Source of the DNA: an uncultured archaeon
GTDB lineage: Archaea; Aenigmatarchaeota; Aenigmatarchaeia; CG10238-14; SCSR01
Direction of reading: 5' to 3'
NCBI GenBank assembly: GCA_964581305.1
Contig: CAZONC010000002.1
Coordinates: forward strand, 1 to 36,936
DNA length: 36,936 bases
The translations under genes were made by a program, and so were the position numbers. The notes below the pieces were generated by a model, which made no database searches, had not been told where the DNA came from, and saw only the letters and a list, made by a program, of their open reading frames with translations. This document shows positions 2,122-30,586 of the stretch, one piece after another. The first letter of the stretch is position 1, and every line of letters starts with the position of its first letter.

Positions 2122-2910
2122 GTGGTTATGGAAAAAGAAACAATTTTCAAATTACTTAAAGATATTGGGTTAAATGAATATGAATCGCGTGCATATGCAA
2201 CGCTTGTTTTTATTGGTCCTGCAAAAGCAAGTGAGATAAGCCAAGAAGCAATAATTCCGCAATCGAAAATTTATGAAGTCTTAGATCAGCTAATGAATAA
2301 ACAACTTGTTGAGGTTTTTAATGGCCGTCCAAAAGAATATAAGGCAGTAGCACCAGAAATTGCATTTAAAAATATTTTAGAACAAAGAAAAAATGAAATT
2401 CAAGAATTAGAAAAAAAATTAATCTATTTAAAAAGTTTTTTAAAACCAATTCGACCAATTGAAGAGGTTACTAGTGGTATATGGACCATAAAAGGCAAAA
2501 AATGGCAAGAGTTTTTTAACAAAACTGCAGAAATGATTGACAGAAGTAAAAATTATGTCTATGGTGTTACACGTGATTTTTCCTTGACACCAACACTTCA
2601 AAAAAGTGTAAAGAATGCTATACGGCGTGGTGTTAAAATACGCGTTATAGGAATGGAAAGACCAAATGAAATAAGTTATCCGAGAGTTAAATGGTATAAA
2701 GCAAATGGTATTGAAGTAAGGATTTTTGAAACAAAAGTACATCCAAGAATTGTTCTAATCGATGATAATGAAGTTTTGCTAAGGCTTGATCATGATCCAA
2801 CAAAAAGGAATAGATTTGGTTTTAATTCGATTTGGTCAAATGATCCTTCTTTAGTTCATGTTTTTAATGTATATGTAAAAAATCTATGGGAAAAAGCAGA
2901 AAAAATTTAA
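2122..2910 (+). CDS. TrmB-family transcriptional regulator
   Basis: N-terminal winged-helix signature LGLNEYESRAYATLV...ASEISQEAIIPQSKIYEVLDQLMNKQLV, followed by a coiled-coil linker and a C-terminal effector-like domain. The likely start is ATG at 2128. Confidence 0.75.
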   Translation: MVMEKETIFKLLKDIGLNEYESRAYATLVFIGPAKASEISQEAIIPQSKIYEVLDQLMNKQLVEVFNGRPKEYKAVAPEIAFKNILEQRKNEIQELEKKLIYLKSFLKPIRPIEEVTSGIWTIKGKKWQEFFNKTAEMIDRSKNYVYGVTRDFSLTPTLQKSVKNAIRRGVKIRVIGMERPNEISYPRVKWYKANGIEVRIFETKVHPRIVLIDDNEVLLRLDHDPTKRNRFGFNSIWSNDPSLVHVFNVYVKNLWEKAEKI

Positions 2911-7657: not shown

Positions 7658-9424
7658 CTACTCCAAAGTTGCATATATTCTCCTTATACCGGCTGCTACA
7701 CTTTCTTCCTTTATAATTTTAAATCGTCCCAGCTTTCGTGTATTGTCAACATGCGGTCCGCCACATACTTCAATAGAAAAATCGCCAATGGAATATACAG
7801 AGACTTTTTCATCATATTTATGCTCAAAAACAGCTTGTGCACCTCTTCTTTTTGCTTCCTCCACTGTCATTTCCTCTCTTACAACTGGCAGTCCTTTTTC
7901 AATTTGCTCATTAACCATTTTTTCTATTTCTCTTATCTCCTTTTCAGTAAGTTTTCTTTCAAAATTAAAATCATATCTTAGTCGCTCTGGTGTTATATTT
8001 GATCCTTTTTGAACTATGTCTGGCCTTTTTAGAACCCTTCGTATAGCTTCAGCCAATAAATGTGTAGCTGTATGTAATTTTGTTGTTTGTTCTGATATCT
8101 CGCTTAATCCTCCCTTGAACCTTTTTTGAGCTCCGATCCGTGATAATTCCTGATGTTTTCTATATTCTTCCTCAAATCCTTTTTCATCAACTTCTATGTT
8201 TGCTTCACGTGCTAAATCTTTTGTTATTTCAAGTGGAAAGCCGAAGCTCTGGAAAAGTAAAAATGCATCCTTTCCACTAATTTGCTTTTTTTCTTTAATA
8301 ATTTGTTTGAATTTTTTCAATCCTTTATCCAATACTTTTCTAAATTTTTCATCTTCTTTTTTTATTTCGTCCAAAATAAAATCTTTGTTTTCATCGAGAT
8401 ACGGATATTCATCTTTGTAAATTTTGATCACAATTTTTGCTAGTTCGGATAAAAACTCTTTTTCTATTCCAATAAGTTTTCCACATCTTATTGCTCTTCT
8501 TAGCAATCGACGTAATACATATCCTCTTTCAACATTGCTTGGTGTTATTTTTTCAGCTAAAACAAAAACCGAAGCTCTTATATGATCAGCAATTATACGT
8601 ATAGCTTTTTCTTGTGCCGCATCGGGTGATTTTATTTTTGCCATTTCTTTTATTTTTTCAACAATCGGTCTAAATGTCTCAATTTCATAAACAGACTTTT
8701 TTCCTTGCAAACATGCAACTGTTCTTTCAACTCCCATACCTGTATCAACATTTTTTTGTTTAAGTTTCTCGTATTTGCCAGAAGCTAATTTATTGTATTC
8801 CATAAAAACATTATTCCATATCTCAAAATATTTTCCACAATCGCAACCGGGTTTACAATTTGTGCTACATGGCTTCTTACCCGTATCATAAAAAATTTCT
8901 GTATCAGGTCCGCAAGGACCTGTCTCGCCAATCGGTCCCCACCAATTGTCTTTTTTTGGATAAAAGAAAATTCTTTCTTTTGGTATCCCTAAACTTTGCC
9001 ATATTTTAGCACTCTCATCATCTCTAGGAGCATCTTCGCTCCCACCAAAAACAGTTACATATATTCGCTCTTTATCAATACCTAGCCATTTTTTATCTGT
9101 CAAAAACTCAAATGCCCACTTTATGGCTTCAGGTTTCCAATAATCGCCCAATGACCAGTTGCCAAGCATCTCAAAAAAAGTTAAATGGCTATCATCACCA
9201 ACTTTTTCTATATCGTCTGTTCGCAAGCATTTTTGAACATTTACAAGTCTTTTTCCAAGCGGATGTGCCCTTCCTAAAAAAAACGGTATAAGTGGGTGCA
9301 TGCCTGCAGTTGTAAATAATACTGCTGTATCCTCGGTTACAAGAGGCACATTTGGAATGACTTTATGATTTTTTTCTTTAAAAAAATTTATGTATAATTT
9401 TTTCAGTTTTTCCGAATCTATCAT
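7658..9424 (-). CDS. alaS: Alanyl-tRNA synthetase, bacterial-type core, compact (588 aa, no C-Ala domain)
   Basis: Catalytic-core motifs FTTAGMHPL, FFEMLGNWSLGDYWK, IWNNVFMEYN and VDTGMGVERT. Editing-domain metal ligands HTATHLL (HxxxH) and CGGPH (CxxxH) lie near the C-terminus. Confidence 0.9.
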   Translation of the reverse strand: MIDSEKLKKLYINFFKEKNHKVIPNVPLVTEDTAVLFTTAGMHPLIPFFLGRAHPLGKRLVNVQKCLRTDDIEKVGDDSHLTFFEMLGNWSLGDYWKPEAIKWAFEFLTDKKWLGIDKERIYVTVFGGSEDAPRDDESAKIWQSLGIPKERIFFYPKKDNWWGPIGETGPCGPDTEIFYDTGKKPCSTNCKPGCDCGKYFEIWNNVFMEYNKLASGKYEKLKQKNVDTGMGVERTVACLQGKKSVYEIETFRPIVEKIKEMAKIKSPDAAQEKAIRIIADHIRASVFVLAEKITPSNVERGYVLRRLLRRAIRCGKLIGIEKEFLSELAKIVIKIYKDEYPYLDENKDFILDEIKKEDEKFRKVLDKGLKKFKQIIKEKKQISGKDAFLLFQSFGFPLEITKDLAREANIEVDEKGFEEEYRKHQELSRIGAQKRFKGGLSEISEQTTKLHTATHLLAEAIRRVLKRPDIVQKGSNITPERLRYDFNFERKLTEKEIREIEKMVNEQIEKGLPVVREEMTVEEAKRRGAQAVFEHKYDEKVSVYSIGDFSIEVCGGPHVDNTRKLGRFKIIKEESVAAGIRRIYATLE

Positions 9425-16453: not shown

Positions 16454-18259
16454 ATGAGTATAAAAAAAATTGTATGCGATACCAGCATAATAATAGATAG
16501 AAAAATATCTGAAATAATCGAAAGTGAAAAGCTGAAAAATATTGAGATAGTTATACCTATAGCGGCTTTAGATGAATTGCAGGCACAAGCTGCAAAGGGG
16601 AAGGAGCCTGGATTTATTGGTCTTGATGAACTCAAAAAATTAAGAGAAATTTGCAGAAAAAAAAGAATAAAAATTCGTTTTGCAGGAAAAAGACCTGAAT
16701 TAGAAGATATAAAATTGGCACGTGCTGGAAGGATTGATGCAATAATTCGCGATGTTGCAAAAAATGAAAAAGGTGTTCTTTATACAGCTGATTATGTTCA
16801 GGCTTTAGTTGCTGAAGCAGAAGGAATAAATGTTTGTTATATTCCTCCTGAAATAAAAACTACTGGCCTTAAATTTGAAAAATTTTTCACACCAGATACA
16901 CTTAGTGTCCACTTAAAAGAAGGTGCTGTGCCTTTAGCAAAAAGAGGTAAACCAGGAAAGTTTGAATTGGTAAAATTGCAAGATAAAAAATGTACAAAAG
17001 AAGAGATCGAAGAAATAATTCGGGAAATTACTGAAGCAATAAGAATAAGTGAAGAAGGGATTGTTGAAATTTCGAGAAGTGGTGCATTAGTTTTGCAATT
17101 GGGTAATTTCCGAATTGCAATTGCTCGACCACCTTTTTCAGATGCATTAGAGGTAACGATCATCCGACCTATTGTTAAACTTAAGTTAGAAGATTATAAG
17201 CTTTCTAAAAAATTAATGGAAAGATTGAAAGAAAAAGCAGAAGGAATTATTTTAGCAGGACCTCCTGGAAGTGGAAAAACAACATTGGCTTCTTCTATAG
17301 CCGAATTTTATGCAAAAGAAAAAAAAGCTGTTGTTAAAACTCTGGAATCACCACGCGATATGCAAGTAAGTGATGAAATTACACAATATCGCCCACTAGA
17401 AGGTGACTTTGAAAAAAGTGCAGAAATTTTACTTTTAGTAAGACCTGATTATGTTGTATTTGATGAGATAAAGAAAACGAAGGATTTTGAAATATTTGCT
17501 GATATGCGACTATCTGGAATTGGAATGATTGGTACAGTTCATGCAACTGATCCTATAGATGCAATCCAAAGATTTATTCCTAGAATAGAGCTTGGAATGA
17601 TTCCACATATAATCGATACAATTCTTTATGTTAAAGATGGGGAGGTAAAAAAAGTTTATAGCCTCAATATGACTGTGAAAGTTCCAACAGGAATGACAGA
17701 AGCTGATCTTGCACGACCTGTTGTGGAAGTAAGGGATTTTGAAACTGATAAACTAGAATATGAAATTTACACTTATGGTGAAGAAAATGTAATAGTTCCA
17801 ATTAAAACAGAAAAAATAGAAGGAATAAAAAAACTTGCAACACAGGCAATTTTGAATGAAATAAAGAAATTTGATCCTAAAGCTGAAGTAGAGATAGTTT
17901 CGGAAAATAAAGCTGTGGTAAAGGTCGGTAATGAAATAATACCTCGCCTAATTGGAAAAAATGGTGCAACAATTTCAAAAATTGAAGAAAAACTTGGAAT
18001 ACATATAGAGGTTGAGCCAAGAATTCCTTCTTTAGGGAAAGAAGTTGAATATAAAATTAGAGAAAGTGGAAATAGCATTGAATTCAATTTTGAGAAAAAT
18101 CTTATAGGAAAACTTGTAAGTATTTATATCGAGGATAAGTTTCTTTTTTCAGCAACTGTGGGAAAAAAGGGACGTATACGTATTAATAAATCTTCTTCTT
18201 TAGGAAAAGAATTGATTAAAGCATTAGTAAGTGGGAAAAAAATTAGAGCAATGATTTAA
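16454..18259 (+). CDS. PIN domain / PilT-like ATPase / KH domain protein (COG1855-like)
   Basis: N-terminal PIN-like segment (VCDTSIIID...), Walker A GPPGSGKTT, Walker B VVFDEI, and a C-terminal KH motif LIGKNGATISKIEEKLG. Confidence 0.7.
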   Translation: MSIKKIVCDTSIIIDRKISEIIESEKLKNIEIVIPIAALDELQAQAAKGKEPGFIGLDELKKLREICRKKRIKIRFAGKRPELEDIKLARAGRIDAIIRDVAKNEKGVLYTADYVQALVAEAEGINVCYIPPEIKTTGLKFEKFFTPDTLSVHLKEGAVPLAKRGKPGKFELVKLQDKKCTKEEIEEIIREITEAIRISEEGIVEISRSGALVLQLGNFRIAIARPPFSDALEVTIIRPIVKLKLEDYKLSKKLMERLKEKAEGIILAGPPGSGKTTLASSIAEFYAKEKKAVVKTLESPRDMQVSDEITQYRPLEGDFEKSAEILLLVRPDYVVFDEIKKTKDFEIFADMRLSGIGMIGTVHATDPIDAIQRFIPRIELGMIPHIIDTILYVKDGEVKKVYSLNMTVKVPTGMTEADLARPVVEVRDFETDKLEYEIYTYGEENVIVPIKTEKIEGIKKLATQAILNEIKKFDPKAEVEIVSENKAVVKVGNEIIPRLIGKNGATISKIEEKLGIHIEVEPRIPSLGKEVEYKIRESGNSIEFNFEKNLIGKLVSIYIEDKFLFSATVGKKGRIRINKSSSLGKELIKALVSGKKIRAMI

Positions 18260-19071
18260 GCTAAAGATTTAGAATTTTTCCAGATAAGTTCAAAAACAGG
18301 CTCAAGAACTTGGCCTGCTGCATATTCACTTTTACTCCATATAGCCATATCTTGGGTTGAATGAACTTTTGAGTCTGTAAGTGAAAGAATGAGTTCTTTT
18401 CCATCTACAACAGTAAATCGCCCAGAAATAGGAATTTCTTTTTCATTTATTATTCTTATTTCTGCTATTCCAGAAAGTGATTTAATTGCATCAGCATTTT
18501 TTTCATCAGCTATTGTTGCAATTCTTATTTGTACACCTTTTTCCTTTGCCTTCTTTAATATGTCAAAATGTGATTTAAGCAATTCATTTAACCCATCAGA
18601 GGTTGTTAAAATGCTTATTTTTTCCTTCGCATCTTTAAACATTGTTTCAAATTGTTGATGAACGGAATATTTTCCTTTCAATGCACCTGTAATATCTTCT
18701 GGTGAAATGATCTTCAATCCCTTGGAAAATAAATCATTTAGATCGCGCATAACTACTGATTCCTTTAAATCATCAATGCGCTGTATAGCTATTTTATATT
18801 CCTCCTCTAATTTTTTCTTTGCTCGCTCTAATGCTTCATCGGGTGGAATAGCTACATATTTTATTGGCTTTCCTGTTTGAACAACCACAAAACCCTTGTC
18901 TGCTAGACTCTGAAGAACATCATATGTTCTTGATCTCGGTACTCCAGCAATTTCCGATAATTCGCTTGCTGTTCCTGTTCCACGAGCTAACAAAGCAACC
19001 CAAAGTCGCCTTTCATATAAATTTAGTCCTATTCCTTTCAATGCATCAAAAACTTTTGCGGAAACTAACAT
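18256..19071 (-). CDS. TrmB-family transcriptional regulator (second paralog)
   Basis: LGLNLYERRLWVALL...ASELSEIAGVPRSRTYDVLQSLADKGFV winged helix, followed by a coiled coil and a C-terminal domain. Confidence 0.75.
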   Translation of the reverse strand: MLVSAKVFDALKGIGLNLYERRLWVALLARGTGTASELSEIAGVPRSRTYDVLQSLADKGFVVVQTGKPIKYVAIPPDEALERAKKKLEEEYKIAIQRIDDLKESVVMRDLNDLFSKGLKIISPEDITGALKGKYSVHQQFETMFKDAKEKISILTTSDGLNELLKSHFDILKKAKEKGVQIRIATIADEKNADAIKSLSGIAEIRIINEKEIPISGRFTVVDGKELILSLTDSKVHSTQDMAIWSKSEYAAGQVLEPVFELIWKNSKSLA

Positions 19072-23474: not shown

Positions 23475-23714
23475 TTGAAATTTGATATAAGAGAACATAA
23501 TCTAGTTCCGAAACACATTGTTTTAAATGAACAAGAAAAAGAAGAATTGCTCAAAAAATACGGTATAAATATTCGACAATTACCAAGAATATTAGTTACA
23601 GATCCTGTAGTAAAATTGTTAAATGCAAAAGTTGGTGATGTAATTAAAATTATAAGAAAAAGTGAAACTGCGGGTGAAACAGTATATTATAGAGTTGTTG
23701 TTAAGTCGGTGTGA
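23475..23714 (+). CDS. rpoH: DNA-directed RNA polymerase subunit H (Rpb5 homolog)
   Basis: HNLVPKH...LPRILVTDPV...GDVIKIIRKSETAGE..YYRVV signature. TTG start preceded by GGTGA. Confidence 0.9.
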   Translation: MKFDIREHNLVPKHIVLNEQEKEELLKKYGINIRQLPRILVTDPVVKLLNAKVGDVIKIIRKSETAGETVYYRVVVKSV

Positions 23715-23717
23715 AAT

Positions 23718-25193
23718 ATGGATAAGTTTCTCACATTGCTAAATGTGCTTGCTAAACAAAAAGGATTTGTTAGATTTCAAATAGATTCGTACAATGATTT
23801 TATTGCAAGGCGAATACCAAAGGTTCTAGAAAGTATTGGTGTAATTAAACCAGAAGTTCCGGAGATTGGAGATTTTAAAATAAAATTGGGTGAATTCAAA
23901 ATAGGTGAACCGAGTATTAAAGAAGCTGATGGCTCGATAAGAAATATACTTCCAATGGAAGCAAGAATTAGAAATTTAACCTATTCTGCGCCAATGTACG
24001 TTGAAATGATACCGATTCTTAATGATATAGAAAGTGAACCTGTTCTTGTTAATTTTGGTGATATGCCTGTTATGGTAAAATCAAAAATATGTCCTTTATC
24101 CGAAATGTCAAGAAAAGAACTTATAGCTGCTGGTGAAGATCCTGATGATCCTGGTGGATATTTTATTATCAATGGTACAGAAAGGATTTTGGTCTTGGTC
24201 GAAGAAATTGCTCCAAATAGAATAATTACTACAAAGGTTGAAAGTGGAAATATAACTGCGATTGCAAGGATAAATTCTGAAAAAGATGGCTACGTGCAAA
24301 AACATTTACTTGAAATGCGAAATGATGGCATTATAACAATAAGCTTTGCAAATATAGTTAGATTGCCGATTGTGATTTTGCTTAGAGCACTTGGACTTGA
24401 AAGTGATAAAGATATTTTAACAGCTATTTCGCTTGATGAAAATATACAAGAAGAGTTTGCTATGAATTTATATGAAGCAGAAGCTAGTACAAAAGAGGAA
24501 GCTTTAGATGAAATTGGTAAGCACATAAAAATTCCTCAAAAAGAATACCGAATAGACAGAGCAATAAAATTAATTGACAAATATTTGCTTCCTCATCTTG
24601 GACAGGAGCCAACAAATAGATTTGATAAAGCAATGTTTTTGGCAAAGGCCATAGAAAAATTATTAAAATTGCATCTAGACCAAATCGAAGAGGATGATCT
24701 TGATCACTATTCCAATAAAAGACTAAGATTGGCAGGCGACTTACTTGAGATTTTGCTTAGATCTATACTTCTTGGTAAATGGGGTTTAATAACAAGAATG
24801 ACATATAATTATCAAAAATTAACAAAAAGAGGAAGATTACCTCCACTACAGGCAATTGTCGAATCAAACGTTTTGACAAATCAGTTAGTCTCTGCCTTAG
24901 CAATAGGTACTTGGGTTGGTGGGAGAACTGGTGTTAGTCAAAGACTAGAAAGAGGTAGTTACATAAAAACTATATCACACATGAGAAATATTCTTTCACC
25001 CTTGACCTCGACACAGGAGCATTTTGAAGCACGAGAGCTTCATCCGACACATTGGGGCAAATTATGTACAAGCGAAACACCAGAAGGGAGTACTATAGGA
25101 TTAAGAAAATATCTTGCAATTACGGCAGAGGTTACAAGAGGTATAAGTGAAAAAGATATAAAATCAATAATTAGTGTTTTAGAAAAAAAGTGA
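23718..25193 (+). CDS. rpoB2: DNA-directed RNA polymerase subunit B'' (N-terminal half of split RpoB)
   Basis: Conserved Rpb2 N-terminal blocks (QIDSYNDFI, GYFIINGTERILV, HPTHWGKLCTSETPEG). Ends at the usual B''/B' split point. Confidence 0.92.
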   Translation: MDKFLTLLNVLAKQKGFVRFQIDSYNDFIARRIPKVLESIGVIKPEVPEIGDFKIKLGEFKIGEPSIKEADGSIRNILPMEARIRNLTYSAPMYVEMIPILNDIESEPVLVNFGDMPVMVKSKICPLSEMSRKELIAAGEDPDDPGGYFIINGTERILVLVEEIAPNRIITTKVESGNITAIARINSEKDGYVQKHLLEMRNDGIITISFANIVRLPIVILLRALGLESDKDILTAISLDENIQEEFAMNLYEAEASTKEEALDEIGKHIKIPQKEYRIDRAIKLIDKYLLPHLGQEPTNRFDKAMFLAKAIEKLLKLHLDQIEEDDLDHYSNKRLRLAGDLLEILLRSILLGKWGLITRMTYNYQKLTKRGRLPPLQAIVESNVLTNQLVSALAIGTWVGGRTGVSQRLERGSYIKTISHMRNILSPLTSTQEHFEARELHPTHWGKLCTSETPEGSTIGLRKYLAITAEVTRGISEKDIKSIISVLEKK

Positions 25194-25197
25194 AAAC

Positions 25198-28100
25198 ATG
25201 ACAAATGTATTTTTAGATGGCAAATTCATAGGAAGTGTAAGTGAACCTGAAAAAATTGTAAATGAAATAAGAGAAAAAAGAAGAATTGGACTTATTTCCG
25301 ATCAGGTAAATGTTGCTTATCATCCTCATCTAAACGAAATAAGAATACTAACAGATCCTGGTAGAGTACGAAGACCTTTAATAATTGTTGAAAATGGTAA
25401 ACCAAAACTTACACAGGAACATATAGAAAAACTAAAGAAAGAAGAGATTTATTGGGACGATTTAATTAAAAATGGTATTATTGAATATCTTGATGCAGAA
25501 GAAGAAGAAAATGCCTATATTGCACTTAAACCCGAAGAACTTACGCCAAAACATACTCACTTAGAACTAGATCCTTCTATAATTCTTGGATTTTCTGCAT
25601 CGCATATACCATATCCAGAATTTAACCGTGGTGACCGGGTAAATTACGGAGCAAAAATGGTTGGTCAGAGTATTGGTTTGTTTGCAATTAACTATCTACA
25701 GAGAACAGATACAAAGTCCAATGTAGGAATTTATATGCAAAGACCACTAGTTCAAACACATATTTATAAAGTAGTAAATTACGATTCGCATCCAAATGGA
25801 ACAAATGTAATTGTTGCTGTCAGTTGCTTTGAAGGATACAATATGGAAGATGCTATAGTAATCAATGAAAGTTCTATTCAGAGAGGGTTATTTTGGAGCT
25901 ATATGTACAGAACGTATGAGGCTGAACAAAAAAGATATATGGGTGGACAGGAAGATGTTATTGGAATACCATCACCAAATGTAAGGGGATATGCAGGCGA
26001 AGATGCATATAAGCATTTGCCTGAAGATGGAATAATTAATCCAGAAACGCCAGTTTCTTCGGATGATATTTTGGTTGCACGATCTTCTCCGCTTCGCTTT
26101 TTTGGAACTATGGAAGAATTTATAGCAGGAATAGAAAATATAAGAGAAACTTCTGTAAGACTGAGACACGGTGATAAAGGAATTGTGGATAGAGTATTTA
26201 TTACTGAAACTGCAGATGGGACAAAGTTGGTAAAAGTTGTTGTCAGAGATTTAAAAATTCCAGAAATTGGAGATAAGTTTGCTAGCCGACATGGCCAAAA
26301 GGGTGTAATAGGTCTTGTTGTTCCACAAGAAGATTTGCCTTTTACAGAAGACGGAATAATACCAGATATAATTTTTAACCCACACGGGCTACCATCGAGA
26401 ATGACTGTCGGGCAATTATTAGAGCTTTTAGCTGGAAAGCTTTCTGCTTTATCTGGAAAATACATATATTCACCAGCCTTCAATCCTACACAAGAAAAAA
26501 TGATAAGAGAAATGTTAAGAAAATATGGTTTTAGAAATGACGGTAAAGAAACAATGTATGACGGAATGACTGGAAGAAAAATAAATACACAAATATTTAT
26601 TGGCAGTTGCTTCTATCAAAAACTTGATCACCTTGTTTCGAATAAAATACATGCAAGATCAAGAGGACCTGTTGCACTCTTGACAAAACAACCAACAGAA
26701 GGAAGAAGCAAAGAAGGTGGTCTAAGACTTGGTGAAATGGAAAAAGATTGTTTAATTGCTCATGGTTCCGCATTAACATTAAAAGAAAGGTTTGACTCTG
26801 ATAAAGCAATTATTCCATTTTGCACAGAATGCGGGTTGGTAGCTGTACATGATAAAATCAAAAATAGAAAATATTGCACACTATGTGGTGAGACCAAAAT
26901 AGTTGATGTGGAAATGTGCTATGCTTTCAAATTAATGTTAGATGAGCTTAAAAGTATGCTAATTTATCCAAAAATTATTGTGAATGAGGAAGAAAGAACA
27001 GTCGATAAAATTGAATTTGGAATAATGGATCCAGAAATGATAAGAAAACTAAGCGTTGCTAAAATTACAAAAACCGAACTTTATGATCAAGAAGGTTATC
27101 CAATAGAAGGAGGGTTAATGGATCCGAGACTTGGTGTCGTAGATCCGGGTATAAGATGTAGAACGTGTGGTGGTTCGATTGGCGAATGTCAAGGTCATTT
27201 TGGATATTTAGAATTAACAAAACCTGTTATCCATGTTCATTATGCAAAATTCATATTCGACTTACTGAAGATATTTTGCAGAAAATGTGGCAAAATTTTA
27301 CTTGAAGATAAAAATAGAGAAAAAATAAAAGAGAAAAAAGCTTCACTTAAAGATATAATAAAAATGGTTAAAAATAAATGTCCTCAATGTAAAACTTCCC
27401 AAAAGGATCTTAAATTTATTAAGCCTTATACAATTGTTGAAGACGGAGATATAATTAATCCGATCGAAATTAGAGAAAGACTTGAAAAAATTCCAAACGA
27501 AGACCTAGAACTTATTGGAATTAAAATTCGTCCAGAATGGCTAGTTTTAACTTTACTTCCAATACCACCTGTAACAGTTCGTGCAAGTATAACTTTAGAA
27601 ACCGGAGAAAGGTCTGAAGATGATTTGACACATAAGCTTGTAGATATAGTAAGAATAAATGAAAGATTGAAAGAAAACATCGATCTTGGAGCACCTGACT
27701 TTATAATAAATGATTTGTGGGAGCTTCTACAATATCATGTAGCAACATATTTTGATAATGAGATATCGGGTGTGCCACCAGCTCGACATAGATCTGGCCG
27801 CATACTTAAAACTCTTTCTCAAAGATTGAAAACAAAAGAAGGGCGATTTAGAGGAAATCTTGCTGGTAAAAGAGTTAACTTTTGTGCACGAACAGTTATT
27901 TCTCCTGATCCAATGATTGATGTAGACGAAGTTGGTGTACCAGAAATTGTTGCAAGAGAATTGACAATTCCTGTAATAGTAAATGAAAAAAATATAGATG
28001 AATGTCGAATGCTTGTTTTGAACGGACCTAATATATGGCCCGGTGCAAATTATGTTATTAAACCAGATGGCCGAAGGAAAAAAATTATAGAGAATAATAA

Positions 28101-29484
28101 AGAAGAAATAGCAAAAGAACTCGCACCTGGTTACATCATTGAAAGGCATATAAGAGATGGTGATATTGCTTTATTTAATCGACAACCAAGTCTGCATAGA
28201 ATGAGTATAATGGCACATAAAATCCGCGTAATGCCATTTAAAACATTTAGATTGAATGTCTGTGTCGCCCCACCATATAATGCTGATTTTGACGGTGATG
28301 AAATGAATTTACATATACCTCAAACCAAAGAGGCACAGGTTGAAGCAGAAGTCCTAATGAGTGTTATAAAACACATACGAAGTCCACGTTTTTCTGGTCC
28401 AATAATTGGTGTTACACGTGATCATTTATCTGGATTGTATCTATTAACAAAAACGGATAAAAAATATGAAAGAAAGGATTTTGTTCAAATGATACGAAGC
28501 ATTGATAGCGAAATTGAAATTCCTGATAAAAACTATTTGACTGGAAAAGAAATCTTTAGTCTATTCTTGCCAAAAGATTTTTCTATTAAATACAAATCAA
28601 AAACCGGTGAACCTGTAATAATTGAAAATGGCAAGTTAATTAAAGGTGTGATAGATAAGGCTGGTGTTGGAAGCGAAGGTGGAAAAATAATTGATAAAAT
28701 TGAAAAAGAGTATGGTCCTGAGTTTACCAAAAAATTCATATATAATCTAACAAAACTTGCTACTGAAGTTCTAATGATGGAAGGATTTTCAATAAGCATT
28801 TCTGATCTAGACGTACCTGAAAACGTTAAAAAGGAAATTAAGGCTGTAATTGAAAATGTGAAAAAAAGTGTTGATAAAATTATTGAAAAGTTTAAAAGTG
28901 GTGAGCTAAAGGTTTTAAGTGGTAAGAGTCCGAAAGAAGGTCTAGAAACTATAATTAAAAGACGGGTTAGTAAGGCATTGGAAGAAGTAAGCGAAATACT
29001 AGAAAAGAATTTAAAAGAAAGTCCTTCTGTTGTTATGGCAAAAAGTGGTGCAAAGGGTGAAATGGTTAACTTAGTACAAACGGCGGCAATGGTCGGGCAG
29101 GAAATGATTATGGGTGAAAGAATTGAAAAGGGCTATTATAAAAGAAGCTTTCCTCATTTTTCGATTGGTGATTTAAGCCTAGAATCAAAAGGGTTTGTTA
29201 GTAGTGGTTTTAAAGATGGTTTAACCCCATTTGAATTTTTCTTTGATGCAATGAATAGCAGAGAATCATTAATGGATAAATCACTTAAAACGCGCCACTC
29301 TGGTTATATGGAAAGAAGGTTAGTTGGAGCATTACAAGATTTAAAAATAGAATATGATGGAACTGTAAGGGATGGTTCAAACCGAATAATAGAGTTTATT
29401 CCTGGTGAAGATGGTTTGGATCCGTCAAAAATTGAGAGGGGAGGTATAAATGTTAGAGGAATTGCCGAAAGATTATTTGGATAA
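25198..29484 (+). CDS. rpoB1/rpoA1: RNA polymerase subunit B' fused in frame to subunit A' (1428 aa)
   Basis: Residues ~1-592 are B' (GYNMEDAIV, GDKFASRHGQKG, KQPTEGRSKEGGLRLGEMEKDC, and Zn ribbon CTECG...CTLCG). Residues ~595 onward are A' (IEFGIMDPEMIRKLS, CRTCGGSIGECQGHFG, NRQPSLHRMS, and catalytic NADFDGDEMN). There is no stop codon between them in the given sequence. Confidence 0.85.
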   Translation: MTNVFLDGKFIGSVSEPEKIVNEIREKRRIGLISDQVNVAYHPHLNEIRILTDPGRVRRPLIIVENGKPKLTQEHIEKLKKEEIYWDDLIKNGIIEYLDAEEEENAYIALKPEELTPKHTHLELDPSIILGFSASHIPYPEFNRGDRVNYGAKMVGQSIGLFAINYLQRTDTKSNVGIYMQRPLVQTHIYKVVNYDSHPNGTNVIVAVSCFEGYNMEDAIVINESSIQRGLFWSYMYRTYEAEQKRYMGGQEDVIGIPSPNVRGYAGEDAYKHLPEDGIINPETPVSSDDILVARSSPLRFFGTMEEFIAGIENIRETSVRLRHGDKGIVDRVFITETADGTKLVKVVVRDLKIPEIGDKFASRHGQKGVIGLVVPQEDLPFTEDGIIPDIIFNPHGLPSRMTVGQLLELLAGKLSALSGKYIYSPAFNPTQEKMIREMLRKYGFRNDGKETMYDGMTGRKINTQIFIGSCFYQKLDHLVSNKIHARSRGPVALLTKQPTEGRSKEGGLRLGEMEKDCLIAHGSALTLKERFDSDKAIIPFCTECGLVAVHDKIKNRKYCTLCGETKIVDVEMCYAFKLMLDELKSMLIYPKIIVNEEERTVDKIEFGIMDPEMIRKLSVAKITKTELYDQEGYPIEGGLMDPRLGVVDPGIRCRTCGGSIGECQGHFGYLELTKPVIHVHYAKFIFDLLKIFCRKCGKILLEDKNREKIKEKKASLKDIIKMVKNKCPQCKTSQKDLKFIKPYTIVEDGDIINPIEIRERLEKIPNEDLELIGIKIRPEWLVLTLLPIPPVTVRASITLETGERSEDDLTHKLVDIVRINERLKENIDLGAPDFIINDLWELLQYHVATYFDNEISGVPPARHRSGRILKTLSQRLKTKEGRFRGNLAGKRVNFCARTVISPDPMIDVDEVGVPEIVARELTIPVIVNEKNIDECRMLVLNGPNIWPGANYVIKPDGRRKKIIENNKEEIAKELAPGYIIERHIRDGDIALFNRQPSLHRMSIMAHKIRVMPFKTFRLNVCVAPPYNADFDGDEMNLHIPQTKEAQVEAEVLMSVIKHIRSPRFSGPIIGVTRDHLSGLYLLTKTDKKYERKDFVQMIRSIDSEIEIPDKNYLTGKEIFSLFLPKDFSIKYKSKTGEPVIIENGKLIKGVIDKAGVGSEGGKIIDKIEKEYGPEFTKKFIYNLTKLATEVLMMEGFSISISDLDVPENVKKEIKAVIENVKKSVDKIIEKFKSGELKVLSGKSPKEGLETIIKRRVSKALEEVSEILEKNLKESPSVVMAKSGAKGEMVNLVQTAAMVGQEMIMGERIEKGYYKRSFPHFSIGDLSLESKGFVSSGFKDGLTPFEFFFDAMNSRESLMDKSLKTRHSGYMERRLVGALQDLKIEYDGTVRDGSNRIIEFIPGEDGLDPSKIERGGINVRGIAERLFG

Positions 29485-30586
29485 AATAGAATTGCCTGAA
29501 AAAATTGTGAAAGAAATAGAAGAAGTGGTAAAAGAAAAAAAACTGAACAAAGAACAAAGAAAAATCTTGGAGGAAAATGTAAAAGCTGAATATATGAAAG
29601 CGCATTTTGAGCCTGGTGAAGCCATAGGAATAATTTCTGCACAAAGTATATCTGAGCCGGCTACACAAATGACAATGCGTACCTATCATTTTGCTGGAAC
29701 TGCTGGTATACGAGTTACATATGGTTTGCCACGACTTATAGAACTGCTTGATGCAAGAAAAGTTATGGAAAGTCCTATAATGACAATCTACCTCAAAAAA
29801 CAGTTCAATAATATAGAAGATGCAGAAAAAATTGCAGAAAAAATCATAGAACGAAAGATTAGTGATATTATAAAAAGAATTTCATTAAACCTAAGTGAAA
29901 ATTCGATCGAACTTGAATGTTTGGATAGAAAAAAAATCGGTGTAATTATAAATGTAATAAAAAAAGCTTTTCCAAATCTGAAAGTGAAGGTTAGGGAAAA
30001 TAAAATTTCTCTTATCCCAAAAGACGATCTTGAATTAAAAGAATTACAGAAATTAAAGACGAAAATTTTAGAATTGCATGTTTCTGGAATTGAAAAAATT
30101 ACTAATGCAGTTGTTAGAAAAGAAAATAATGAATGGATAATAAATACAATTGGATCTAATCTTGAAAAGGTTTTGGAACTCCCCGAAGTTGATGAAAAAA
30201 GAACTATTACTAGTGACATTCATGAAACGCTAAAAGTACTTGGTGTTGAAGCAGCAAGAAATGTTCTATTTAATGAAATATGCAGAACTCTTGATGAACA
30301 GGGTCTTGACGTTGATAGACGACATGTAATGCTTGTTGTCGATATTATGACATTTAGAGGTGATATAAGGCCAATTGGGAGATATGGTGTTGCTGGTGCA
30401 AAAACATCTATACTAGCAAGAGCTGCATTTGAAGAAACTGTAAAACATTTAATTAGGGCTGCTATAAAGAAAGAGACAGATGATCTAAGAGGTATTTTTG
30501 AAAATGTAATGATTGGGAAAGTAATACCTTCTGGTACAGGAATGTTTGATCTTTTGGCGCGATTGGAAAAAAGTGAAGGAAAATGA
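29450..30586 (+). CDS. rpoA2: DNA-directed RNA polymerase subunit A''
   Basis: GEAIGIISAQSISEPATQMTMRTYHFAG and a C-terminal GKVIPSGTG. The ATG is preceded by GGGGAGG and overlaps the A' 3' end by 35 nt. Confidence 0.92.
   Translation: MLEELPKDYLDKIELPEKIVKEIEEVVKEKKLNKEQRKILEENVKAEYMKAHFEPGEAIGIISAQSISEPATQMTMRTYHFAGTAGIRVTYGLPRLIELLDARKVMESPIMTIYLKKQFNNIEDAEKIAEKIIERKISDIIKRISLNLSENSIELECLDRKKIGVIINVIKKAFPNLKVKVRENKISLIPKDDLELKELQKLKTKILELHVSGIEKITNAVVRKENNEWIINTIGSNLEKVLELPEVDEKRTITSDIHETLKVLGVEAARNVLFNEICRTLDEQGLDVDRRHVMLVVDIMTFRGDIRPIGRYGVAGAKTSILARAAFEETVKHLIRAAIKKETDDLRGIFENVMIGKVIPSGTGMFDLLARLEKSEGK

Follow-up and report, generated by a model that had tools for sequence, protein, structure and literature searches.

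In the window analyzed here, which comprises 36,936 nucleotides of contig CAZONC010000002.1 from an uncultured archaeon of the Aenigmatarchaeota, the B' and A' subunits of RNA polymerase (RNAP) are joined in one open reading frame (ORF) of 4287 nt on the + strand (25198..29484). The gene is very probably a genuine and evolutionarily maintained B'-A' fusion and not the product of a sequencing error. Its predicted 1428-aa product is the archaeal counterpart of the fused beta-beta' of Helicobacter, and the gene comparisons described below place such a fusion in dozens of species of DPANN archaea (Aenigmatarchaeota).

The frame runs without a stop through the B'/A' join, and the first stop codon lies only at 29482-29484. 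The Pfam analysis of the ORF identified Rpb2_4, _5, _6, and _7 in this order over aa 4-594, followed by Rpb1_1 to _5 over aa 600-1406 (of domain 5 only the start), all with scores far over the curated cut-offs. These results bore out the claim of a first-pass annotation of this DNA that a single 1428-aa ORF leads from B' into A' without a stop. The translation contains the hallmark of B', the C-terminal zinc ribbon CTECG...CTLCG (CxxC...CxxC), as well as that of A', the catalytic motif NADFDGDEMN. The B' part matches the C-terminal half of the archaeal Rpo2 chains in the PDB to 2-3 residues from the chain ends, and the alignments with Rpo1N/A' chains begin at chain residues 3-5, corresponding to aa 599 of the query. 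Together with Pfam and, for B', the unfused relatives, these alignments place the B' (Rpo2C) part at 25198..26991 (+ strand; aa 1-598, ending ...IYPKIIVNEE) and the A' (Rpo1N) part at 26992..29484 (+ strand; aa 599-1428). B' has no stop codon of its own in the window, and A' has neither its own start codon nor a ribosome-binding site (RBS): no ATG, GTG, or TTG with an RBS was found at the B'/A' boundary, and the codon at the position of the relatives' initiator Met is ACA (Thr). The C-terminus of the second-largest subunit continues in frame, within one ORF, into the N-terminus of the largest subunit.

The bases at the junction (26968-26988) read cca-aaa-att-att-GTG-aat-gag, as had been annotated, within the wider context ...tta-att-tat-cca-aaa-att-att-GTG-aat-gag-gaa-gaa-aga-aca-gtc-gat-aaa... 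(around 26960-27010). They include a run of five A (26970..26974, + strand) in cca aaa, the Pro and Lys codons of IYPK, a motif conserved in the B' tail. The first-pass annotation had offered a homopolymer sequencing or assembly error as one explanation of the join; if the true run were A4, B' would end in PKLL at TGA 26981-26983 in a GTGA overlap with an A' start, and if it were A6, B' would stop at TGA 26985-26987, leaving two genes in either case. This arithmetic is right. One base more or less in the run brings a stop within 1-3 codons, and in several relatives at 75-77% identity A' does lie in a frame other than that of B'. However, the exact 1428-aa protein was found in four independent public sources (NCBI, JGI/IMG, Logan, and ENA) on 3-4 contigs of differing length, the longest of 43 kb, and the JGI contig (30,999 bp, against 36,936 bp for the window) is identical across the 10,287 bp compared. 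In 100 fused loci, the A-run at the same Pro-Lys codons has a length of 1 (n=1), 2 (36), 3 (25), 4 (21), or 5 (17), so that it is ≤4 in 83 and ≤3 in 62 of them. The fused relatives carry CCGAAG, CCAAAG, CCCAAG, and similar codons at this site (for example, CCGAAGATT and CCCAAGGTC), the frame being identical in all. Those without the run are collinear in frame, and the two nearest relatives (P0176 and P0177, 78% identity) are also fused and match the window in linker length. The fusion is found in more than one assembly and is present in relatives without the homopolymer. A single indel can bring a stop into any ORF, and the A5 run is not special in this respect. The fused frame is independent of the run, which is incidental. 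The A4 version would also yield a B' that lacks the conserved tail residues (...KEE-stop) kept by every unfused relative and an A' with six extra N-terminal residues, starting at a GTG without an RBS, a layout that occurs in 0 of 56 unfused loci. An open frame of 4287 nt over two essential genes that recurs in more than 100 diverged relatives is no chance ORF. A homopolymer error is highly improbable on these sequence data and is already close to refuted.

To survey the relatives, the full-length ORF protein was used as the search query, and the best-scoring 119 other protein clusters (90% identity) were assessed. All of them (119/119) contained Rpb2 and Rpb1 domains in one protein, at 54-78% identity, and their lengths were 1417-1461 or 1909-1932 aa, save a few truncated entries. 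About 80 of these best-scoring clusters were of the B'-A' type (1417-1461 aa, 55-78% identity), and about 35 were of a type in which an unsplit B is joined to A' (1909-1932 aa, 54-58% identity). A DNA-level scan of the best 80 GTDB species representatives and 80 metagenome contigs gave 159 classifiable loci. A locus was called fused if B' (or B) and A' lay in one frame with a stop only at the A' end, and loci with an in-frame stop between B' and A' (L057, L110-L114, and L156) were accordingly classed as separate. The scan showed 103 fused loci, including 39 GTDB species representatives, and 56 loci with separate genes; these figures are counts and not frequencies, because the ranking of loci is biased to in-frame layouts. 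The 103 loci and 119 clusters show that the fusion is more than the accident of a single genome. A comparison of orthologous junctions had been proposed as a check, and it showed that most of the loci classified are fused, that some relatives at 75-77% identity have a two-gene layout, and that no unfused one has a GTGA overlap at the position of GTG 26980. Thus, among the alternatives offered at the outset, the real fusion stood, supported by the four sources and all 119 clusters, whereas homopolymer error and frameshift-dependent expression did not.

The outcome of such a search depended on the query. A 300-aa junction query returned one-sided fragments only, owing to the way in which the word index picks candidates, and would mislead if taken as a negative result, whereas the whole ORF returned more than 100 full-length fused proteins. 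Public databases name these fused proteins only "subunit A'" or "subunit B". The RNAP genes of some records, L013 (JAEOTG010000167.1), P0236, P0044, and P0119, cluster with Aenigmatarchaeota despite their labels of Heimdallarchaeota, Woesearchaeota, Nitrospirota bacterium, and bacterium; these records are probably mis-binned or mislabeled contigs of metagenome-assembled genomes.

The unfused relatives were then used to locate the true boundary between the subunits. In these relatives, B' ends ...IYPKIVLKEE-stop, four residues beyond the end proposed in the first-pass annotation, and A' starts at an ATG 0-13 nt past the B' stop, with a protein beginning M-x-V-D-K-I-E-F; the usual signal before this ATG is a Shine-Dalgarno-like, AGGAGG-like motif inside the KEE codons. 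In L110-L114, which are unfused but in frame, the sequence is KEE-TAG-AAA-ATG-ATA-GAT-AAG, with the stop and one codon between the genes. The window residues I-I-V-N-E-E-E-R-T-V-D-K are codon-for-codon collinear with this layout, E599 (GAA) taking the place of the stop and T601 (ACA) that of the initiator Met of the in-frame unfused relatives. The boundary therefore lies near 26991/26992 rather than at GTG 26980, and a frameshift plays no part in it. At the position of this GTG, relatives have codons such as ATA, ATC, GTC, or TTG, and the residue is V/I/L/M/T; since a hydrophobic residue is conserved there and a start codon is not, this GTG encodes a B' tail residue and is no relic start, contrary to the A' start proposed in the first-pass annotation. 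A coupled GTGA stop/start at 26980, as had been envisaged, is used by no unfused relative. Likewise, the description of the join as one homopolymer nucleotide away from the two-gene layout fails, as unfused B' ends four residues later and the A' ATG follows 0-13 nt on.

Remnants of the former start region were found among the fused genes. Many of them retain a vestigial Met (e.g., VVVDEEMNTIDK in L016), including both nearest relatives (P0176, ...KEGEMLVDR; P0177, ...EEPDMLVGR), and a Met at the old A' start was present in 12 of 71 fused linkers examined. GGAG/GAGG was found upstream of the A' N-terminus in 41/56 separate loci versus 22/103 fused loci. The unsplit-B clade shows the same relation between layouts, with NVSG-stop-M-IES in the separate L060 and NLNG-K-L-IGS in the fused L028. 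From the collinear in-frame layouts and the vestigial Mets, we infer that the fusion arose by loss of the stop codon, with the start signals decaying afterwards. In the ancestral layout, the B' stop and the A' ATG would have been adjacent and in frame; the B' stop would have changed to a sense codon (GAA here), joining B' to A', and the redundant initiator Met (its codon now ACA in the window) and RBS would then have decayed.

The retained Mets also bear on the possibility that the ORF is fused while separate subunits are still made, either by internal initiation (e.g., at GTG 26980) or by proteolysis of the linker. The variable linker residues would fit this explanation as well. However, the window linker has neither a Met nor an RBS, relatives keep a hydrophobic residue but no start codon at the position of 26980, and fused loci are depleted of Shine-Dalgarno-like motifs. 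Initiation at the next in-frame ATG (aa 611, GIMDPEM) would cut off the conserved IEFG strand. As to proteolysis, the linker forms a 4-residue turn in a modeled hairpin with a predicted local distance difference test (pLDDT) value of ~90, and is predicted not to be an exposed loop. The production of separate subunits from the fused ORF is thus improbable. Programmed frameshifting or slippage on the A5 run, which would give B' alone in addition to the B'-A' fusion, is more improbable still, to the point of being negligible. The run is A-rich (CCAAAAATT), and a -1 or +1 shift would end B' within a few codons; however, the zero frame already yields a complete product, neither the run nor a slippery heptamer with downstream structure is conserved among the fused relatives, and no relative matches a B' truncated at PKLL or PKNYCE. 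Both programmed frameshifting and an internal start at GTG 26980 were therefore rejected, the run and the GTG being unconserved.

The conservation around the junction was analyzed in the 42 fused loci with the window's linker length. At the protein level, the flanks YAFKL..DEL...IYPK and ..I.F were 83-100% identical, with abundant synonymous differences, whereas aa 596-601 varied freely, with only 5-29% identity at aa 596 and 598-601. As judged from these alignments, the region behaves as functional coding sequence in which a short turn tolerates changes. The turn (E-E-E-R-T, aa 597-601), where the most variable positions lie, occupies 26986..27000 on the + strand, as placed by the collinearity with L110-L114 and by AlphaFold.

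The structural plausibility of a genuine B'-A' join, which had been asserted on general grounds, gained support from two sides. The PDB sequence search returned one chain spanning the junction, 3QQC chain A. This structure is a recombinant Pyrococcus furiosus clamp composed of B 1053-1115, A' 3-318, and A'' 334-371 with short Gly/Ala/Ser linkers (PMC3094117), and the construct was soluble, bound Spt4/5, and was crystallized (Martinez-Rucobo et al. 2011, PMC3094117). The window junction aligns with it without gaps (E = 2e-36; pkiivneeertvdkiefgi versus PKLNLSEGGKVIGSIEFGI), and the natural linker length is therefore exactly that of the engineered one. As in the fusion gene, the C-terminus of B is joined to the N-terminus of A' in 3QQC, with a two-residue spacer; in contrast to the natural full-length fusion, the construct is artificial, amounts to a mini-domain of only 436 residues, and also takes in part of A''.

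An AlphaFold2 model of aa 520-900, with 51 fused homologues in the input, had a predicted template modeling (TM) score of 0.78 and pLDDT values of 86-94 around the junction. In the model, the EEER turn (pLDDT ~90) connects the strands aa 589-596 and 601-609 in a beta-hairpin. The best PDB match of the model was again 3qqc_A, with a TM score of 0.74 over 376 of 381 columns. In the clamp of the native enzyme, the tail strand of B pairs with the first strand of A'. With the last strand of B' and the first of A' already next to each other, a 4-residue turn (EEER) closes the hairpin and leaves the fold undisturbed; by the model, the fusion is structurally feasible. The turn would tether B' and A' covalently within the clamp. 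Likely consequences would be the obligatory 1:1 synthesis of B' and A' and a clamp and catalytic core that assemble more easily or more stably.

To follow the history of the fusion, a neighbor-joining tree was constructed from concatenated B'+A' of 131 near-complete loci, with 40 bootstrap trees. Two fused loci (L093 and L089) form the sister group of the window within a large split-B clade of 71 tips, 54 of which are fused, and the window's sister group is wholly fused in 33/40 bootstrap trees. Lineages with separate genes are interspersed in this clade (L069-73, L075-77, L079-81, and L110-114). Outside it, the fused state occurs in three clades, namely the unsplit-B clade (>30 loci), L030+L040, and L036+L046+L048+L058+L151. 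Fitch parsimony required 12 state changes on the neighbor-joining tree and 11-12 across the 40 bootstrap trees. Both the outgroup archaea and the root inferred for the gene tree have the unfused state. On these gene trees, the fusion state is clearly labile.

Several variants of the fusion were observed. Unsplit B-A' ORFs of ~1909-1932 aa (about 1911 aa) characterize a large clade of Aenigmatarchaeota (L028, L039, L042, L045, L054, L055, L124-L147, and others; proteins P0155 and P0258-P0285). Their junction, ...IYPKINLNGKLIGSIEF, is collinear with ...NVSG-stop-MIESIDF of separate relatives. In the split-B clade, P0244 (1924 aa, NCBI, 66% identity) holds B'', B', and A' in one protein, with the B''/B' join ...MIKLGNEGADVFFDGEYLGK...; it is a secondary re-fusion of the B split atop the B'-A' fusion. 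P0309 (L162:4732-11376, Logan contig SRR24908257_10944) is a 2214-aa ORF with Rpb2 domains 1-7 and complete Rpb1 domains 1-5, so that B, A', and A'' lie in one frame; it comes from one assembly only, and its gene neighborhood is archaeal (S19e ... S12, S7, EF-2, FEN1, and GatB/GatA). With ~29-35% identity to the window and a B/A' linker that is 10 residues longer, it looks like an independent and more extreme fusion. P0372 (L163:6001-10998 and L164:6001-10998; 1665 aa) contains RPB2 domains 1-7 and only domains 1-2 of RPB1, and is present on 13 contigs of up to 79 kb. Its neighbors are DOT1, GIY-YIG, DnaJ, and many ORFs without Pfam domains, and by these neighbors it looks like part of a giant-virus-type genome with its own RPB2-RPB1N fusion.

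We lean slightly toward the view that the enzyme works in fused form in DPANN archaea, as B'-A', B-A' (~1911 aa), and B''-B'-A' (1924 aa), with a 2214-aa B-A'-A'' elsewhere, and that these forms reflect about a dozen gains and losses by changes of stop codons. If true, the DPANN variants would constitute a natural experiment in the assembly of a multisubunit polymerase, and the view of such rearrangements as rare would be overturned.

Some points weigh against a maintained, functional fusion of B' and A'. The single polypeptide is a prediction from the DNA. Separate genes are present in some close relatives at 75-77% identity (L069-L081), and the fusion is therefore not required for function in the group. 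The locus ranking favors single in-frame matches, which biases the sample, and the tree is a simple neighbor-joining gene tree of the polymerase itself, made from this biased sample. A functional benefit of tethering, whether in assembly, stability, or stoichiometry, is conjecture.

Fusions of rpoB and rpoC (beta-beta') are documented in Helicobacteraceae and Wolbachia (Zakharova et al. 1999 and Lane & Darst 2010, as cited in a passage of PMC7483510), in agreement with the precedent invoked by the first-pass annotation. In both the bacterial and the archaeal cases, one ORF leads in frame from the C-terminus of the second-largest subunit into the N-terminus of the largest, the fusion is conserved in a lineage, and relatives have adjacent or overlapping separate genes. 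The archaeal fusion differs in its independent origin and in its partners, which are a split B' and A' (an unsplit B and A' in a sister clade); its product covers the beta-beta' equivalent only in part, A'' being separate and, in this genome, B'' too. It is also unevenly distributed within the phylum, and the gene tree requires at least 11 changes. All partners are archaeal-type B'/A', and the outgroups and the root are unfused, which speaks against common descent with the bacterial fusions; the archaeal fusion is an analogue of the bacterial ones and not a homologue. H. pylori tolerates a split of its fusion, and E. coli tolerates an artificial fusion. Tethering is therefore compatible with function but not essential.

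Within Archaea, RNAP genes are described as split between B'' and B' (in methanogens and halophiles) and between A' and A'', and in Pacearchaeota A' and A'' have secondarily been rejoined (Da Cunha et al. 2017, PMC5484517); such events have been termed rare (PMC5484517). These events resemble the present one in that large-subunit genes are rearranged at operon boundaries and are used as rare genomic characters; however, they join or split pieces of one subunit, whereas two different subunits are joined here. No description of an archaeal B-A' fusion was found in the searchable open-access literature, and an earlier mention in non-open text or supplements is possible. The words fused and fusion are absent from a 2026 survey of archaeal RNAP evolution that includes Aenigmarchaeota (PMC13257274), and a 2026 preprint on the B'' subunit of Aenigmarchaeota does not mention a B-A' fusion. 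As both the literature and the database names are silent, we regard the B'-A' gene as a new archaeal variant of a known fusion type. The bacterial fusions and the engineered clamp are precedents for it, but no earlier report seems to exist of an archaeal fusion of the two catalytic subunits that extends across a phylum and has evolved recurrently. It suggests that nature can close the clamp contact between the B C-terminus and the A' N-terminus into a hairpin, as structural biologists did artificially, and it may serve as a starting point for studying how the polymerase is assembled, and in what subunit stoichiometry, in DPANN archaea with their reduced genomes. The B/A' fusion state, being labile, is unreliable as a rare genomic change for phylogeny. 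For annotation, proteins of 1430 aa or 1911 aa under one-subunit labels can mislead marker-gene pipelines in which RpoB and RpoA' are expected as separate proteins.

The fused ORF lies in an operon of the standard archaeal type, in the order rpoH, rpoB'', fused ORF, rpoA'', L30e, NusA, S12, and S7, with EF-2 and EF-1alpha later. The first RNAP gene of the operon is rpoH (Rpo5; 23475..23714, + strand), with a TTG start, a stop 3 nt ahead of the B'' ATG, and the Pfam domain RNA_pol_Rpb5_C on the identical JGI contig. It is followed by rpoB'' (Rpo2N; 23718..25193, + strand; Pfam Rpb2_1, _2, and _3), which is a separate gene with its own stop, the B''/B' boundary consisting of TGA 25191-25193 and then ATG 25198. 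Downstream, rpoA'' (Rpo1C; 29450..30586, + strand; the remainder of Pfam Rpb1_5, domain positions 34-266) is separate and overlaps the A' end by 35 nt. The other three operon boundaries (H/B'', B''/B', and A'/A'') thus retain a stop and a start in the window. At A'/A'', the A'' ATG 29450 lies 35 nt ahead of the A' stop TAA 29482-29484 and is preceded by a strong GGAGGT (29440-29445) within the A' coding sequence. With this motif and the overlap, the classical signals of translational coupling are kept at A'/A'', although they are lost at B'/A'.

Two further features of the window were noted. An alanyl-tRNA synthetase gene (7658-9424, - strand) encodes only 588 aa, with tRNA_SAD (second additional domain) at aa 541-584; as the protein ends right past this domain, the usual C-terminal (C-Ala) region is apparently absent. 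Two paralogous TrmB-type regulators of ~265 aa are encoded at 2122-2910 (+ strand) and 18256-19071 (- strand), the former with a weak PLD-like domain at its C-terminus.

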